Assembly (NCBI GenBank): GCA_035544735.1
Contig: DATKCD010000073.1
Coordinates: 8,546 to 72,545 of the forward strand
Source of the DNA: Thermoanaerobaculia bacterium
GTDB lineage: Bacteria; Acidobacteriota; Thermoanaerobaculia; Gp7-AA8
Direction of reading: 5' to 3'
DNA length: 64,000 nucleotides
Of the stretch, positions 1,989-48,122 are shown one piece after another; the stretch's first letter is position 1; the number at the start of each line of letters is the position of its first letter. A program made the translations under genes and the position numbers. Under the pieces are notes generated by a model. The model did no database searches and had not been told where the DNA came from. It saw only the letters and a program-made list of their open reading frames with translations.

Positions 1989-2087
1989 GGAGCGGAGGCG
2001 GTGACTCGGAGGGCCGCAAGGCGCGACATCAGCGCCGAGCCGAAGATCGTCATTCTTCGCCGCGCCCCAGGGTTAGAATGCGCGTCG

Positions 2088-2525
2088 ATGGACGAGTTCA
2101 TGGCAGCCGCGATCGCCGAGGCGGAGGAGGGGATGCGCGAAGGGGGCATCCCGATCGGGTCGGTTCTGGTGCACCGGGACGAGATCGTCGGCCGCGGTCA
2201 CAACCGCCGCGTCCAGCGCGGCAGCGCCGTCCTGCACGGCGAGATGGACGCGCTCGAGAATGCCGGCCGCCTCTCCGCCTCGATCTATCGCGATTCGACC
2301 ATCTACACCACGCTCTCCCCCTGCGCGATGTGCAGCGGCGCCATCCTCCTCTACGGGATCCCGCGCGTCGTCGTCGGCGAGAACCGCACCTTCCTCGGCG
2401 AAGAGGATCTGCTCCGCAGCCGCGGCGTCGCCGTCGACGTGCTCGAGGACCCCGCCTGCATCCGAATGATGGAGGAGTTCATCGCGCGACACCCCACCCT
2501 CTGGAACGAAGACATCGGGGTCTGA
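2088..2525 (+). CDS. Zinc-dependent cytosine deaminase (yeast FCY1-like CDA fold)
   Basis: It carries HGEMDALEN and SPCAMCSGAI zinc-ligand motifs and is near-collinear with FCY1 (TTLSPC.MC.GAI..YGIPR.VVGEN). The ATG at 2088 is in frame with ORF 2001..2525. Confidence 0.85.
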   Translation: MDEFMAAAIAEAEEGMREGGIPIGSVLVHRDEIVGRGHNRRVQRGSAVLHGEMDALENAGRLSASIYRDSTIYTTLSPCAMCSGAILLYGIPRVVVGENRTFLGEEDLLRSRGVAVDVLEDPACIRMMEEFIARHPTLWNEDIGV

Positions 2526-2935
2526 GGAGCGTCTGGTGCGTCTTGAGCGTCTTGAGCGTCTTGTGCGTCTTGAGCATCTGGAGCGTCTGGAGCATCTTGG
2601 GCGTCTTGAGCATCTGGAGCGTCTGGAGCATCTTGGGCGTCTGGCGCGGCACGGCCGCCCGGTGCAGGTGAATCGATTCCAGACTCACGAGACGCCCTAG
2701 ACGCACGAGACGCACGAGACGCACAAGACGCCCAAGACGCCCCAGACGCCCCAGACGCCCTAGACGCCCTAGACGCCCCAGACGCCCCAGACGCCCCAGA
2801 CGCCCCAGACGCCCAAGACGCCCCAGACGCCCAAGACGCCCAAGACGCTCCAGACGCCCAAGACGCCCAAGACGCCCAGGACGCCTCAGACCCCCTCGAC
2901 GCTCCAGACGCCCTGGACGCCGTGATCGACGTCCG
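2526..2935. repeat. Inverted array of 9-bp tandem repeats (left arm GAGCGTCTT-like x~13, right arm AAGACGCCC-like x~27) forming a potential ~120-bp-stem hairpin
   Basis: Read directly from the sequence. Positions 2526-2650 hold 9-mers gcgtcttga/gcgtctgga/gcatcttgg. Positions 2690-2930 hold their reverse complements agacgcccc/agacgccca/agacgccct. A ~45-bp unique spacer separates the arms. The array sits between convergent genes. Confidence 0.9.
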
Positions 2936-3944
2936 AAGGCTGGACGGTGACTCGCTCGCCCGCGCGCTCGGGCCCCTGGAACAGGATCGGGTGCAGCACC
3001 CGCTCGAGGATCGCCCGGAGCCCGCGAGCGCCCAGCTTCTGGCGGAGGGCGGCGTGGGCGATGGCGTAGAGGGCTTCCGTGGAGAACTCGAGCTGGAGCT
3101 GATCGAGGGCGCAGAGGCGCTGGTATTCGGGCACGAGCGCCTCGCGAGGCTGCGTGAGGATGGCCACCAGGTCGTCGGCCGTGAGCGCATCGAGGTGCAC
3201 GCGGACGGGAAGGCGGCCCAGCAGCTCGGGAAGGAATCCGTAGCGGACGAGCTCGTCGGTGCGCGGTTCGGCCGCCGGGCCCGCCCCCGAGCCGAAGAAC
3301 CCGATCGGCTTCGCGTCGGGCTCCTGCTCGAGATCCGAGAACGAGCCGGAGCAGATGAACAGTATGTTCGAGATGTCGAGCTCGACGTAGTCGTACTTGT
3401 TCCAGTGAGCGGTGACGTTCATCGGGACGAAGATCTTCTCGCCTTCGAGGATCTTGAGCAGAGCCTGCTGAACCCCTTCTCCGCCGATGTCGCGGGAACC
3501 GGCGCCGGTCCTCGCGCCGCCCGAGCGGCGGGCGATCTTGTCGATCTCGTCGATGAAGACGATTCCGGTCTCGGCCTGGCCTACGTCCTGATTCGTGCTG
3601 TAGAGCAGACGGCCGATCGCGACCTCGACGTCCTCGCCGTAATACCCGGCTTCCGTGAATGCGGTCGCGTCGTTGTAGGCGAACGGGACGTCGAGAATGC
3701 GGGCCAGCGTGCGCGCCAGATACGTCTTGCCCGATCCGGTCGGGCCGATCATCAGAACGTTCGACTTGTGGATCGATGATTCGCCCGAGAAGCGGAGGTA
3801 CTCGATGCGCTTGAGATGGTTGTATGCCGCGATCGCGAGAACTTCCTTCGCGTGTCGCTGCCCGACGACGAACTGGTCGAGCTGCTCGTAAATTCGGCGC
3901 GGAGTGATGTGGAGAAAGCGGTAGACGTCGCGCCTTTCCTTCAT
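2886..3944 (-). CDS. ClpX-like AAA+ ATPase lacking the N-terminal zinc-binding domain
   Basis: ClpX N-terminal signature YEQLDQFVVGQRHAKEVLAIAAYNHLKRI, Walker A GPTGSGKT, Walker B IVFIDEIDKI. The pore loop is GYYGEDVE (canonical GYVG). An IGF-loop PIGFFGSGAG is retained. There is no C4 zinc ribbon. The start Met is residue 114 of ORF 2886..4283. Confidence 0.8.
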   Translation of the reverse strand: MKERRDVYRFLHITPRRIYEQLDQFVVGQRHAKEVLAIAAYNHLKRIEYLRFSGESSIHKSNVLMIGPTGSGKTYLARTLARILDVPFAYNDATAFTEAGYYGEDVEVAIGRLLYSTNQDVGQAETGIVFIDEIDKIARRSGGARTGAGSRDIGGEGVQQALLKILEGEKIFVPMNVTAHWNKYDYVELDISNILFICSGSFSDLEQEPDAKPIGFFGSGAGPAAEPRTDELVRYGFLPELLGRLPVRVHLDALTADDLVAILTQPREALVPEYQRLCALDQLQLEFSTEALYAIAHAALRQKLGARGLRAILERVLHPILFQGPERAGERVTVQPSDVDHGVQGVWSVEGV

Positions 3945-4321
3945 CGGATCCCCGCATCCGAGTATAGCACCGGCGCGGAGCCGGCTTCCGCCGCCGCGCC
4001 CCTGCAGAAACTTTTGCACTCGGCTTCCCGACGCAAAAAATCTTGACACTCCGTCCGACGGGGATTCGAGCCCGATCCCCCGGTCCCAGAAGCGTTTGAC
4101 CCCTTCAGCCACGTTCGGCCGAGCCCTTGAACTGTCGTGCCGGCGAAGGAGGTGATGCCGGAGCGAGAACGAACAGATTTGATCGGAGTCAGGTGAACGG
4201 TGTGGGTTCGTCACCAGGCTCTCGAGCCGGAACGTCTCGAAAGCAGACATACGAAACTCGAAACCACGAACAAGACTCAGCACTCACTCTCGAAACGAAA
4301 CGAAAAGGAGGGTTTCACGAC

Positions 4322-4690
4322 ATGCGGATTCTTCAGTCCCGAATGATTCTCATCCTCACCCTGCTCGTCCTCGGGGCGGGCACGGCCCTCGCCGACGAGG
4401 CGGCGCCGGCGGCGGGCGTGGTCAACATCAACACGGCGGCCGCCTTGCAGCTCGAGCTGCTCCCCGGAGTCGGCCCGAAGGTCGCCGAGCGGATCGTCGC
4501 CTGGCGCGACCAGAACGGCCCGTTCAAGAAGACGACCGACCTGATGCAGATCCAGGGGATCGGCGAAAAAACCTTCGAGCGTCTGAGCCCCTATCTGACC
4601 CTCGAAGGGAAGACCACCCTGGCGAGCGAAGTCCGCCTTCCGCGGAAACCGCGCGCAGACTCGCCCTCCAACAAGGCGCAACGGCAGTAG
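4322..4690 (+). CDS. comEA: ComEA-like helix-hairpin-helix DNA-binding competence protein
   Basis: It has a signal peptide (MRILQSRMILILTLLVLGAGTALA) followed by tandem HhH motifs (VNINTAAALQLELLPGVGPKVAERIV...IQGIGEKTFERL). RBS AAGGAGGG lies upstream. Confidence 0.8.
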   Translation: MRILQSRMILILTLLVLGAGTALADEAAPAAGVVNINTAAALQLELLPGVGPKVAERIVAWRDQNGPFKKTTDLMQIQGIGEKTFERLSPYLTLEGKTTLASEVRLPRKPRADSPSNKAQRQ

Positions 4691-4785
4691 CCTCGCGCCT
4701 CCCGCCACCCGGGGCCGCTCCGTCACCGGAGCGGCCCCCCTCGAACCGACCGCCCGCGCCCGCCAGAGCGCGAAAGGAGTGTCCC

Positions 4786-5379
4786 GTGTTTCGACGCCGG
4801 AAAGGATTCGCCCTCGTCGAGATGCTCGCCGTCGTGGCGATCGTCGGCCTGATCGTCGCGGTGAGCGTGCCCGCGTTCGGCACGATTCGCCGGAAGGCTG
4901 CGCTTCGCGCTTCCGTCCACGAGATCCGGTCCGTCATCCGGCTGGGCCGCTCGCGCGCGATCGCGCGCGGAGAGCACTCCGCGATCAAGTTCCGCAAAAC
5001 GGGAGAGGTCTGGACCTGGGCGCTCGTCGACGACCTCGACGGAGACGGCGTCCGAAACGACGACATTCTCGCGGGCATCGATCTGGTGATCGGGCGCTAT
5101 CGCGACGTGCTGGTCGCCTCGGACGAGGTCGCCATCGCCCTCCCGAGCTTTCCCGTCCGCGACCCGGATACCAAGAAGTTTCTTCCGGCGAACGCTTCGC
5201 CGGTCCGCTTCAATGCATCGACCCTCTGCTCGTTCGGTCCTCTCGGCGGAGGGACTTCCGGCTCGATCTTCCTGACCAACCGTTGGGACGACGTGGCGAT
5301 GGTGCGCGTGTCCGGAGCGACCGGGCGCGTTCGCGCGATTCTCTACGACCGCGGGACCGAGACCTGGGGTGGGCTTTGA
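4786..5379 (+). CDS. Prepilin-type N-terminal cleavage/methylation domain protein (type IV minor pilin / GspH-FimT-like pseudopilin)
   Basis: N-terminus RRKGFALVEMLAVVAIVGLIVA is a class III signal peptide (G|F cleavage site, Glu at +5). GTG start. Confidence 0.75.
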   Translation: MFRRRKGFALVEMLAVVAIVGLIVAVSVPAFGTIRRKAALRASVHEIRSVIRLGRSRAIARGEHSAIKFRKTGEVWTWALVDDLDGDGVRNDDILAGIDLVIGRYRDVLVASDEVAIALPSFPVRDPDTKKFLPANASPVRFNASTLCSFGPLGGGTSGSIFLTNRWDDVAMVRVSGATGRVRAILYDRGTETWGGL

Positions 5380-7081: not shown

Positions 7082-10000
7082 GTGATCCCTCCCGATGCCG
7101 TCGCGGCGTGCGCCGACCTCCAGGGCGTCGCCGCCCTTCTGCGCGAGCTCGGCTGGGACGTCGCGCTCCGGCCGCTCGATCCGGGATTCTGGCGGAGATG
7201 CAACGTGGCGCCTCTGCCCGACACCGCGCATCTGTTTCACGCCTCCCGTCACGGGCCGATCGAGCTGTTCGTCGCGGAAGGGACCGCCGCCCGCGACGCC
7301 GTCGCGGCTTTCACCGGCGCGCTCTCGTCGTGGAATCTCCTGCTTCGATTCGTCACGGTCTATCGTGACTCGGAGACGGGGTCGATCTCGATCTTCGGCA
7401 CGGATGGGAAGCGCCGGCTGCGCCGCATCGATCTCGACCGAACTTCGCCCAGGGCCGAAGCGCTCGCGCGGGCGGGCGCCCTGGAACTGCGCGGGACCGC
7501 CTCGTCGGCCGACTTCGTCACGGGCCTGGAGCGCGCCTTCGAGAAAGAGAGCGTCGGCCGGAAGTTCTTCCTGCGGTTCCGGGACGACGTCGCCCGCCTC
7601 TCGCTCGACCTCGCGCGCGCCTGTCCGGCCGAGGATCCCCGTGCCCTCGCCGCCGAATCTCTGCTGATTCTCTCGAGAATCCTCTTCCTCTGTTTCATCC
7701 AGGAGAAAGGGTGGCTGGACGGAAATCGCGCATACCTGTCCGATCTGGTGCGCCGATCGGCGAAGGTTCGCGAAGGAATGTTCTCGGGGGTGTTCCTGCC
7801 GCTCTTCTTCGGCTGCCTGAACACTCCGCCCGCGCGTCGCGATCCGTTCGCGCGAAAGCTGGGGCGGGTCCCCTACCTCAACGGCGGACTGTTCGAGCCG
7901 AGCGCGTTCGAGCGCCGCCACCCGGTCATCGGGCTGGACGACGCCGTGCTCGAATCGATTCTGTTCGACACCTTCGAACGTTTCCAGTTCACGATCGAAG
8001 AGGACGACGAGACCGGCGCGCACATCGACCCGGAGATGCTCGGACGGGTCTTCGAGACGCTGATGGCGGAGGACGAGCGCGCGGAGAGTGGGAGCTTCTA
8101 CACGCCGCGTGAGGTCGTCGACGTGTTGACGGCCCGGGCGATCGCCGTCCGGGTCGGGCGGGACGAGCGGCGCGCGGGCGCGGTTCTGGCGCGATGGGCG
8201 GCGGAAGGGGAGGCGGAGATCGAGAGCATCGCGAGCCGCGAGCTTCTCGTCCGCCTTCGATCGATTCGGATCCTCGATCCCGCCTGCGGGTCGGGGGCAT
8301 TCCTTCTCGCCGCGCTTCACTCGCTCGAGGGCCTCGAGCGCCGGATCTGTGAAGGGCTGGGGATCCCGCCGCCCGCCGGCGTGCGGCGCCGGATCGTCGC
8401 GAGGTCGCTTCACGGAATCGATCTCAAGCCCGAGGCCGTCCGCCTGTGCGAGCTCCGCCTCTGGCTCGCGATCGCCTCGGCTCACGACGGCGATTCGATG
8501 GAGATCGAGCCTCTCCCCAACCTCGACCGGAACATCCTCCAGGGAAACGCGCTGATCGGCCCGCTCGACTTCGCCGGAGGTGCGCGCTTCGATCTGGTCC
8601 GCGAGTGGTCGTTCGCCCTTCGCGCCCGCGAAGGGATGCTCGAGCGGTACCGCGTCGCCGCGCCGGCGGAGCGGCGCTCGCTGGCTGCGGCTCTGCGGAG
8701 CTCGGACCGGGAGCTCGCGCTCGCGATGACCTCGCGTGCGGCCGAGGTCGCACGGGACGAAGTCGACGATCTGGTCCGCCGCCAGGGCTCGCTGTTCGGG
8801 GGGAAACCGCGCCGGAACGACCCGCGAATCGCAGCGATCGAGGCGCGGATCGAAGCGGCGGATCGTGAGCGGGCGCGCATCGAGTCGGGAGAGATCGGCT
8901 TCTTCGCCCCTGACGTCCATTTCGCGCACGTCGAGCGGGACGGCGGATTCGACCTCGTGCTCGGCAACCCTCCCTGGGTCCGCGCGCCGCGCATCGAGCC
9001 ATCCCAGCGCAAAAAGCTCGCCGAGCGCTATCCGATGTTCGGCAAACCGATGCGCGGGAGCGCCATCCATCAGGGAGAGCTCGCGCTCGCCTTCTTCGAG
9101 AAGAGCCTCCGGCTCGCCGCTCCGGGAGGCGTGGTCGCCCTTCTCGTTCCGGCCAAGGTCGCGACCGCCGATTACGCCGCCCGATTTCGTTCCGAGATCA
9201 GTCGTCACGGCCGCCTCGTCGAGATCCGCGACTGGAGCGAGCGCGCACGCTCGCTCTTCGACGCAGACACGTTTCCGCTCGGTGTCGTCCTGCTGAAGGG
9301 CGCCCGGCCGGCGACGACGCTCGTGGTGGACGGCGCGTCCGGATTCGCGGTACCACAGAGACGCCTGGGCGATCGCGCCGGCGGCCCGTGGATCCTCGCT
9401 CCCGCCGAGGTTCGCTCGATCCTCGATCGTCTGCGCGATGCCGGCGAGCCGTTCGCGACGCGGTTCGCTCCCCCCATCATGGGCATCAAGACGGGAGCCA
9501 ACCTCGAGTTCTTCGTCGAGCCGGAGATCGTGAACGGATCACGGTGGGCTCGGCTGGCCGGCATCGAGGTGCCCATCGAGGCTCTCTGCCGCGTCGTGCG
9601 CGGGCGCGACGTTCGCCGATGGAGCGCCCACGGATCGGTCTGGATGCTCTGGCCCCGGCCGGGCGAGCCGTGGTTCGAGCGTTGGCGCGCCTCGGGCGGA
9701 CCGAAGCCGGCTTCGCTCGCCTACTCTCGGCCCGCCCACTTCGGTTCGAAGGTCGTCTGGAAGGACATCTCGCGCGGGATGTCGGCGGCCGCGGTGCCGC
9801 CGGAAACCGAGTTCGAAGGACGTCGCGTCGCCCTCGTTCCGAATCAGACCGTCTATTGCGCGGAGGTCCCGAACATGGAGCAGGCTCACCTCGCCGCGGC
9901 GCTGCTCAACTCGACTCTCGCGGGCGCGTGGCTCGCCTCGGTCGCCGACCGCGCGAAAGACTCCCACTTCCGCTATTTCGGCAGGACGGTGGCGGGACTG

Positions 10001-23930: not shown

Positions 23931-24122
23931 ATGAAGAAGTCCCTGATTGTCACCCTCGTTGCGATCTTCGCGATCGCCACCCTCGCCGTCAGTTGTGCCA
24001 GGGAAGAAACCATCATCACCGATACCGCCGCGACGGATACGGTCGTCATCGACACCGACACCGCGATGACGGACACGACGATGACGGACACGACGATGAC
24101 CGACACGACCGGCACGTACTGA
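23931..24122 (+). CDS. Small lipoprotein with Thr/Asp-rich (T-[MA]-TDT) repeats
   Basis: Signal peptide plus lipobox (MKKSLIVTLVAIFAIATLAVSC), then TDTAATDTVVIDTDTAMTDTTMTDTTMTDTT. It is encoded by an 18-bp DNA tandem repeat (gatgacggacacgac...). Confidence 0.4.
   Translation: MKKSLIVTLVAIFAIATLAVSCAREETIITDTAATDTVVIDTDTAMTDTTMTDTTMTDTTGTY

Positions 24123-43940: not shown

Positions 43941-48122
<4,182 letters not shown>

Follow-up and report, generated by a model that had tools for sequence, protein, structure and literature searches.

Head-to-head 9-bp tandem arrays between convergent genes of a Thermoanaerobaculia bacterium: a probable empty copy of a lineage-restricted, foldback-type repeat

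What kind of element is the roughly 400-bp block of 9-bp tandem repeats (positions 2526-2935) that separates two convergent genes in a 64,000-nucleotide stretch of a Thermoanaerobaculia genome (GenBank assembly GCA_035544735.1, contig DATKCD010000073.1, positions 8,546 to 72,545; hereafter the window, with positions counted from its first letter)? A preliminary description of this DNA had presented the block as a giant inverted repeat of 9-mers that overlaps the 3' end of a ClpX-like gene, and this layout was confirmed by Tandem Repeats Finder and by open reading frame (ORF) coordinates. We consider it probable that the block represents, without any ORF, an 'empty' copy of a foldback-type selfish repeat that is restricted to this lineage, resembles the intervening sequences (IVSs) of 23S rRNA and is built from two head-to-head arrays of GGGCGTCTN, with unstable copy numbers and a tendency to recombine. 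The element has three parts:

2527..2643, plus strand: left array, 13 units, 9-mer consensus GAGCGTCTK, in fixed phase (from the unit listing)
2644..2679, no strand: spacer, unique, 34-36 bp (36 in fixed phase), centre of the palindrome and itself non-palindromic
2680..2922, minus strand: right array, 27 units, GGGCGTCTN on the minus strand (from Tandem Repeats Finder, pattern matches and the unit listing)

Tandem Repeats Finder placed the left array at 2527-2642 (12.9 copies at period 9, with 81% matches and the consensus GAGCGTCTT) and the right array at 2679-2921 (27.0 copies at period 9, with 85% matches and the consensus CCAGACGCC), in agreement with the ~13 left and ~27 reverse-complement right copies first counted, and the right-array consensus is the reverse complement of the left-array consensus. 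On the plus strand the right-array units read CCAGACGCC, CAAGACGCC or CTAGACGCC, with the outer 4-5 units degenerate, and this arm has 9 T in 243 nt. Within the left array, G-to-A unit variants (GAGCATCTG) are ordered as a 36-bp (4-unit) higher-order repeat, which the same program reported as a 36-bp period (3.2 copies, 91% matches) together with a period of 18. A spacer had been described as well, and it is present, though at 34-36 bp and not at the stated ~45 bp, a figure that came from omitting degenerate inner units. Matches to a two-unit pattern (≤2 mismatches) numbered 28, all of them in 2528-2921, where 0.3 were expected and 0 of 100 shuffles reached 28. An inverted-repeat finder recovered arms of 117-140 nt that are 78-81% complementary at each 9-bp register; with complementarity at 73-81% whatever the register, no mirror-image (register-specific) order of unit variants between the window arms was demonstrable. 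No comparable palindrome was found elsewhere in the 64-kb window.

Secondary-structure prediction upheld the idea of a >100-bp imperfect hairpin, as the complementary arms of 2500-2950 folded far outside the range of shuffled sequences, with values of -252 kcal/mol (z = -14.8) for plus-strand RNA, -337 kcal/mol (z = -20.9) for minus-strand RNA and -136 kcal/mol (z = -11.6) for DNA. Differences between the arms are mostly transitions (GAG or GAGCA in the left arm vs GGG or GGGCG in the right), and the minus-strand RNA is predicted to be the more stable because these transitions give G.U pairs and because the G-rich strand pairs with itself. An intrinsic terminator joins a GC-rich hairpin to a U-tract; no U-tract follows the window hairpin, and a promoter/terminator scan gave no terminator-like site in 2500-2950, its sole site in 2000-4500 lying at 3918, so that the proposed bidirectional terminator, in its canonical intrinsic form, is not supported. 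Neither the arrays nor the palindromic core described below matched a family when the window region and eight related loci were scanned against Rfam, and no rRNA match was found in 2000-3500, the element lying between the deaminase and ClpX-like genes and not in a 23S rRNA helix.

That the structure is specific to this locus, as the preliminary description held, is contradicted by the same unit at many intergenic loci of close relatives, an outcome that the description itself had named as decisive; its suggestion to look for the repeat elsewhere uncovered copies dispersed in relatives' genomes and a single copy in the 64-kb window. Array loci and relatives' loci in this comparison carry L-numbers, and the scan used a three-unit pattern over one genome per species. 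Its matches were mainly single short arrays in unrelated taxa, along with at least 12 contigs of the Thermoanaerobaculia metagenome-assembled genome (MAG) JBOGJQ01 and three loci in the Acidobacteriota MAG MFD03899.bin.2.39. Head-to-head inverted arrays of GGGCGTCTN occur in at least six related Thermoanaerobaculia/Acidobacteriota assemblies, and their polarity is fixed, with 13 of 13 two-armed loci reading (GGGCGTCTN)n then (NAGACGCCC)n and 0 the reverse. Across 316 units from several genomes the consensus was G-G/A-G-C-G-T-C-T-N with GGCGTCT almost invariant, an invariance that is partly circular because units were picked on that core. A metagenome scan (four units) and a viral scan (three units) added 28 and 2 loci, respectively, and no further two-armed ones; we rejected these matches as family members, as they are short single arrays from unrelated, often lower-GC taxa and are probably coding repeats, and L075 was set aside as a coding repeat as well. 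A one-armed, more degenerate 9-bp array of ~25 units (CGAGACGCC / TGAGACGCG) lies upstream of a gene in the Candidatus Marinacidobacterales chromosome OZ240210.1 (L096, 3349-3600); this array may be distantly related to the family, though from a different order of the Acidobacteriota.

What the arms enclose varies from copy to copy. Between converging genes, the window and L020 have short unique spacers of 36 bp and 53 bp, while L101 and the pair that opens L040 enclose nothing at all, their arms joining at GCGTCGAGCGACGC. Elsewhere a ~130-bp palindromic core resembling a MITE (miniature inverted-repeat transposable element), GTCATCCTGAG...GAAGGATCTCCTCAGC...GCTGAGGAGATCCTTC...CTCAGGATGAC, sits in either orientation between the arms (L034, L040, L055, L077) or beside a single array (L028, L061, L094), and a variant of it without arrays lies downstream of the ClpX-like gene in L105. 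The core copies, in both orientations and all in MAG JBOGJQ01, are:

L034, 150-270: palindromic core
L040, 5706-5836: palindromic core
L055, 1449-1590: palindromic core
L077, 5624-5737: palindromic core
L028, 4905-5035: palindromic core
L094, 1300-1435: palindromic core
L061, 236-367: palindromic core
L105, 1722-1882: palindromic core

This core had 0 matches in the window, and the window spacer gave chance matches only when compared by blastn-short with the cores and cassette leaders of related elements.

In five assemblies (L088, L140, L141, L142 and L143) the arrays enclose a gene of family PF05635, annotated as '23S rRNA intervening-sequence protein', and these cassettes occupy three distinct genomic sites, between FHA and LexA, between a response regulator and a 288-aa protein, and between PilZ and Band_7. 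The cassette protein matches the solved S23p-type pentamer structure 2GSC, a four-helix bundle. For the RNA of the L141 cassette, folding predicts that the two arrays form a ~70-bp stem with the ORF inside it (-403 kcal/mol, z = -16). The arrays of the cassette at the third site (L143, 2868-2912 and 3394-3456) carry the variant unit GGGGGTCTN / GGGAGTCTN, both arms being altered together at the same unit position; on the sense RNA the variant gives a G.U pair. A literature search gave no account of such arrays in Thermoanaerobaculia or of array-flanked PF05635 genes, and as far as that search shows the foldback-type 9-mer repeat family is previously undescribed.

The cassettes also reveal how the arrays behave over time. 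L140, L141 and L142 represent one orthologous site (response regulators of L141 and L142 97% identical; 288-aa proteins of L142 and L140 83%), and their arrays hold 14/8, 8/4 and 4/7 units, respectively, numbers that are subject to assembly accuracy. Compared with L141, L142 has its cassette flipped between flanks that keep their orientation, and the orientation switches inside the arrays; general homologous recombination would be sufficient for such an inversion, as these inverted repeats consist of long tandem arrays. When four cassettes were aligned, their leaders proved unalignable and third codon positions had diverged, while the 9-mer was unchanged. The suggested slippage or recombination hotspot thus holds for members of the family, in which copy numbers differ and a segment is inverted, and the window copy itself lies at a breakpoint of synteny.

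That breakpoint can be placed with some precision. In three relatives (L102, L103/L104 and L105, the last from MAG JBOGJQ01 with a ClpX-like protein 86% identical to that of the window) the gene order runs MmeI-like, 566-aa protein, pseudopilin, ComEA-like and ClpX-like, followed by codirectional NAD kinase, amidohydrolase and other genes. The window retains the entire upstream block (ComEA-like, pseudopilin, 566-aa protein and MmeI-like), none of the relatives' genes downstream of ClpX-like was found anywhere in the window, and the tblastn alignment to the orthologous region stops at 2916. No arrays were found beside the ClpX-like or deaminase genes of the relatives. Because synteny stops inside the right array, the element lies exactly at a rearrangement breakpoint or at an assembly mis-join, and recombination between copies may be what broke the gene order here.

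Family members occur between converging, tandem and diverging genes, and also upstream of dnaA, lexA, prs and a tRNA. By hand-curated counts, 17 of 18 array ends at gene 3' ends have 0-6 nt between them and the stop codon, the boundary often reading TAG|CGTCT, and array ends at gene 5' ends lie 17-140 nt from start codons. From these contexts and distances, the placement fits DNA that fills whatever space selection allows, not a dedicated 3'-end device. The 18 stop codons next to arrays (from the window, L020, L028, L034, L040, L055, L068, L071 and L140-L143; hand-curated) comprise 8 TAG, 5 TAA and 5 TGA against a background of 60% TGA (p about 0.006). At the TAG|CGTCT boundary it looks as though the stop codon were provided, or overlapped, by the outermost unit. 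Among copies upstream of genes, the spacerless pair in L101 (1004-1315) lies ~140 nt upstream of dnaA beside the DnaA-box-like TTTTCCACA and CTGTGGAAA, likely in the origin or dnaA promoter region, and L040 has both a pair at the contig start (18-143 and 224-297), 80 nt upstream of a tRNA gene, and a second element upstream of a cspA-like 5' untranslated region (an Rfam match below the gathering score).

Under the reading that we favour, the array pair would be the stem of an IVS-like selfish cassette that resides in intergenic DNA instead of rRNA, and the window copy would be a solo stem whose cargo was lost or never present. At the DNA level, the window arrays would grow and shrink by slippage, for which the 36-bp higher-order repeat of the left arm is evidence, and the element would recombine with itself as well as with other copies, which would account for the break in gene order. 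Selfish spread by some mechanism is suggested, and mobility is implied by the occupancy of several sites. At the RNA level, any transcript crossing the element would fold into a duplex of >100 bp, with the G-rich sense strand of each arm pairing with itself. Cleavage by RNase III would be the most plausible fate of this duplex, and/or it would stop 3' exonucleases as well as read-through from one converging gene into the other; repetitive extragenic palindromic (REP) sequences, bacterial interspersed mosaic elements (BIMEs) and rRNA IVS stems behave in this way. RNase III cleavage, protection of 3' ends or blocked read-through may occur on the RNA of the family, and the window element may have a terminator or RNase III role.

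Several observations weigh against this interpretation. All of the data are metagenome assemblies, whose copy numbers may be in error, and a mis-join inside the repeats could underlie the break of synteny in the window. Pattern and palindrome scans revealed the element as the sole copy in the 64-kb window, so that dispersal is shown for relatives rather than for the source genome. No PF05635 gene was found in the window by tblastn, and neither a core in the window nor a cassette remnant in the spacer was present, so that the loss of a cargo is conjectural. Neither transposase, target-site duplication nor presence/absence polymorphism was found, with no transposase noticed beside any copy and no direct repeat evident at the outer ends of the window element; relatives have no arrays beside either flanking gene, but synteny is broken there as well, so that they offer no clean empty site. 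Covariation between arms, as seen in L143, is not universal, given that the L020 arms carry differing unit variants.

Among the other explanations, a host-selected 3'-end element, which would bar transcription from both directions or stabilise mRNA 3' ends in the manner of REPs and BIMEs and spread by repeated recruitment, strikes us as rather unlikely. It accords with the placing of the window copy between converging genes, at or within the stop codon of each, with a very stable fold that is more so on the ClpX-sense strand (where transitions become G.U pairs), and with the family abutting stop codons in nearly every case counted; yet the hairpin lacks both a U-tract and a terminator-like site, copies between divergent genes or upstream of dnaA, lexA, prs and a tRNA stand where a 3' role would be senseless, orthologous ClpX-like and deaminase genes in relatives manage without an array, and the unequal, variable arm lengths speak against a tuned structure. 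We are more doubtful that the 9-mers are in essence putative binding sites, whether for a PF05635 pentamer, a transposase/recombinase or a nucleoid protein, with the hairpin a secondary matter. The near invariance of GGCGTCT over 316 units next to non-coding DNA that has diverged, the fixed polarity and the standing of PF05635 as the only repeatedly enclosed gene would all be expected of such sites, but the unit does drift (to GGGGGTCTN in L143 and to the CGAGACGCC type in L096), slippage-driven concerted evolution alone can keep units uniform, and the window lacks a PF05635 gene.

An assembly artefact, in which two gene-plus-array halves from different loci were joined through repeat k-mers and copy numbers are unreliable, is improbable, although the source is a short-read MAG, the join coincides with the synteny break, and JBOGJQ01 contigs L034, L040, L068 and L089 start or end inside arrays, from which it follows that assemblies break at them. 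What argues against it is the unique, non-palindromic 36-bp spacer that joins the arms, the distinct arm variants that make long k-mers unique, and the recurrence of the two-armed layout, including the cargo-less L020, both in another MAG, on contigs of 425-631 kb, and in four more assemblies. A variable-number tandem repeat formed in situ by local slippage and local inverted duplication would account for a single copy in 64 kb and for the 36-bp higher-order repeat as a local expansion; with the same unit, polarity and stop-codon contact at many loci in relatives (one of them with 86% ClpX-like identity), we regard this as very improbable. There is next to no chance, finally, that the open frames across the arrays (GRL, ASW, GVL / KTP, DAP) truly encode tripeptide repeats: long open frames do traverse the arrays, and short single 9-mer arrays in unrelated taxa, including L075, probably are coding, but the frames of the window arrays (GRL, ASW and others) lack the signature of G+C content at third codon positions that this genome's genes have, the flanking genes end where their orthologues end, and arrays are found in either orientation and whatever the intergenic context.

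Placed next to known systems, the element appears as a variant of several kinds and a member of none. The closest likeness is to the 23S rRNA IVS. In Coxiella the IVS has a 28-bp terminal stem with an S23p ORF in the loop, is excised by RNase III, and has tandem heptamers, variable in number, next to the ORF; IVSs of Coxiella, Leptospira and Salmonella are regarded as selfish, with many copies losing the ORF (PMC4990558). Terminal inverted repeats likewise form a long stem here, and in relatives this stem encloses a PF05635 ORF for a 2GSC-like four-helix bundle; terminal inverted repeats around an insert, which characterise the IVS stem, were found in both the window arms and the L141 cassette arrays. 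The stem as a substrate of RNase III is known for IVSs and would be expected of the 9-mer arrays. The arrays differ in lying between protein-coding genes, in having a stem of tandem 9-mers (4-27 units per arm) where the IVS has a unique 28-bp inverted repeat, and in that the window copy has no ORF whereas relatives L088 and L140-L143 do.

REPs and BIMEs, including CGTC-tagged REPs (PMC3733652), are similarly dispersed, intergenic, hairpin-forming, often head-to-head, mostly just downstream of genes and lineage-specific, and the 9-mer contains CGTC. A REP unit, however, is an imperfect palindrome of 20-40 bp with a GTAG or CGTC tag (PMC3733652), whereas the 9-mer GGGCGTCTN is non-palindromic and by itself forms no stem-loop, it takes two opposed arrays to make a palindrome, and the copy number per site is far more variable; assignment to the CGTC-tagged REPs was rejected on the ground that REPs are small self-palindromes (PMC3733652). 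Foldback transposons and MITEs (Drosophila FB and Galileo; PMC3573991, PMC4079207) share long terminal inverted repeats made of tandem repeats, a variable or absent middle, unequal arms and a link to inversions and breakpoints, and the terminal inverted repeats typical of MITEs and foldback elements are present in the window arrays; those elements, unlike the 9-mer arrays, are eukaryotic and have known transposases, while for the arrays neither a transposase nor a target-site duplication was found. Invertible segments flanked by inverted repeats resemble the cassette in that it occurs in both orientations at one site (L141 vs L142) and differ in that no invertase gene is adjacent and no promoter switch is evident. 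A CRISPR array was ruled out, the 9-mers being head-to-tail without spacers where CRISPRs have 23-50-bp repeats with unique spacers, and so was an iteron or centromere-like (parC/tubC) array, the neighbours being chromosomal housekeeping genes and the array loci many per genome.

A more far-reaching possibility, which we think unlikely, is that the inverted arrays are the cis-acting ends of a mobile, invertible cassette system whose sole gene encodes a PF05635 (S23p / Avd-like) protein that recognises the 9-mer as DNA or as an RNA stem and promotes spread, inversion or removal by RNase III, the cargo-less copies being non-autonomous. If true, this would provide a function for the long-unexplained IVS ORFs and a mechanism for IVS-type movement. 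The pairing of array and PF05635 protein is in any case a concrete candidate for a family without known function outside diversity-generating retroelements, and a PF05635 gene tied to foldback arms outside rRNA suggests a wider class of selfish cassettes bounded by stems, with IVS elements among its members. Among bacterial dispersed repeats, arms of 9-bp tandem foldback type would be a new architecture, one that has so far been essentially that of eukaryotic foldback transposons. The arrays also mark breaks in gene order, DNA flips, rewritten gene ends such as the ClpX-like tail, and breaks in short-read assemblies, which makes them relevant to the annotation of Acidobacteriota and to MAG quality.

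The two neighbours of the window element converge on it with both 3' ends facing the repeat. Their features, together with those of the tail and of a G-rich tract in the right arm, are:

2088..2525, plus strand: nucleoside/cytosine deaminase, 145 aa (Pfam dCMP_cyt_deam_1, E = 2.6e-23; 100% identical to P0121)
2886..3944, minus strand: ClpX-like AAA+ ATPase, 352 aa, without the zinc-finger N-domain (Pfam AAA_2 and ClpB_D2-small; 100% identical to P0001)
2886..2921, minus strand: repeat-encoded ClpX-like tail GVQGVWSVEGV and TGA stop, 11 codons plus stop (ORF translation)
2740..2841, minus strand: G-quadruplex-motif tract ((G3+N1-7)x4), the longest in the window (regex scan)

P0001 and P0121 are entries from a Thermoanaerobaculia MAG, on a contig of 93 kb; exact-protein look-ups of the window ClpX-like and deaminase proteins returned no record, and thus yielded no other assembly of this locus. 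The deaminase C-terminus (...LWNEDIGV*) and its TGA stop (2523-2525) are native, as orthologues end in ...LWNEDIGV/E, and the left array begins 1 nt past this stop codon. By contrast, the ClpX-like tail is encoded by the right array, in four degenerate units at its outer end, with a TGA unit variant giving the stop; that the tail is repeat-encoded had been rightly described, though it spans ~11 codons plus stop (2886-2921) where ~15 had been stated. ClpX-like orthologues (344-351 aa) are shared up to ...SDV[DE] and then have 5-10 unrelated residues, and because orthologue tails are short, variable and unrelated, it is a dispensable native tail that the repeat has overwritten. Slippage cannot switch the protein, since a 9-nt unit keeps the frame and the stop lies outside the homogeneous part of the array, in its degenerate distal units; with orthologue tails of similar length as well, the idea of a phase-variable C-terminal extension does not survive. 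The G-quadruplex tract is a by-product of GGGGCGTCT units in the right arm, and the regex scan gave no such motif in the left arm, so the property is not common to both.

Further upstream in the block that is conserved in relatives, a ComEA-like helix-hairpin-helix gene (4322-4693, plus strand) and a gene with a prepilin-type N-methyl domain (4792-5376, plus strand) are divergent from the ClpX-like gene, an arrangement kept in array-less relatives. A likeness of the repeat unit to the Neisseria DNA-uptake sequence had been considered together with this nearby ComEA-like gene and was dropped, the ComEA synteny being kept where arrays are absent. The same block holds an MmeI-like type IIL restriction-modification gene (7082-9001, plus strand) that is 51% identical to the syntenic gene of L102. 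Other tandem repeats of the window lie at 24064-24109 (15 bp x 3.1, 96% matches) and 46850-46922 (27 bp x 2.1-2.2), both probably within coding sequence.

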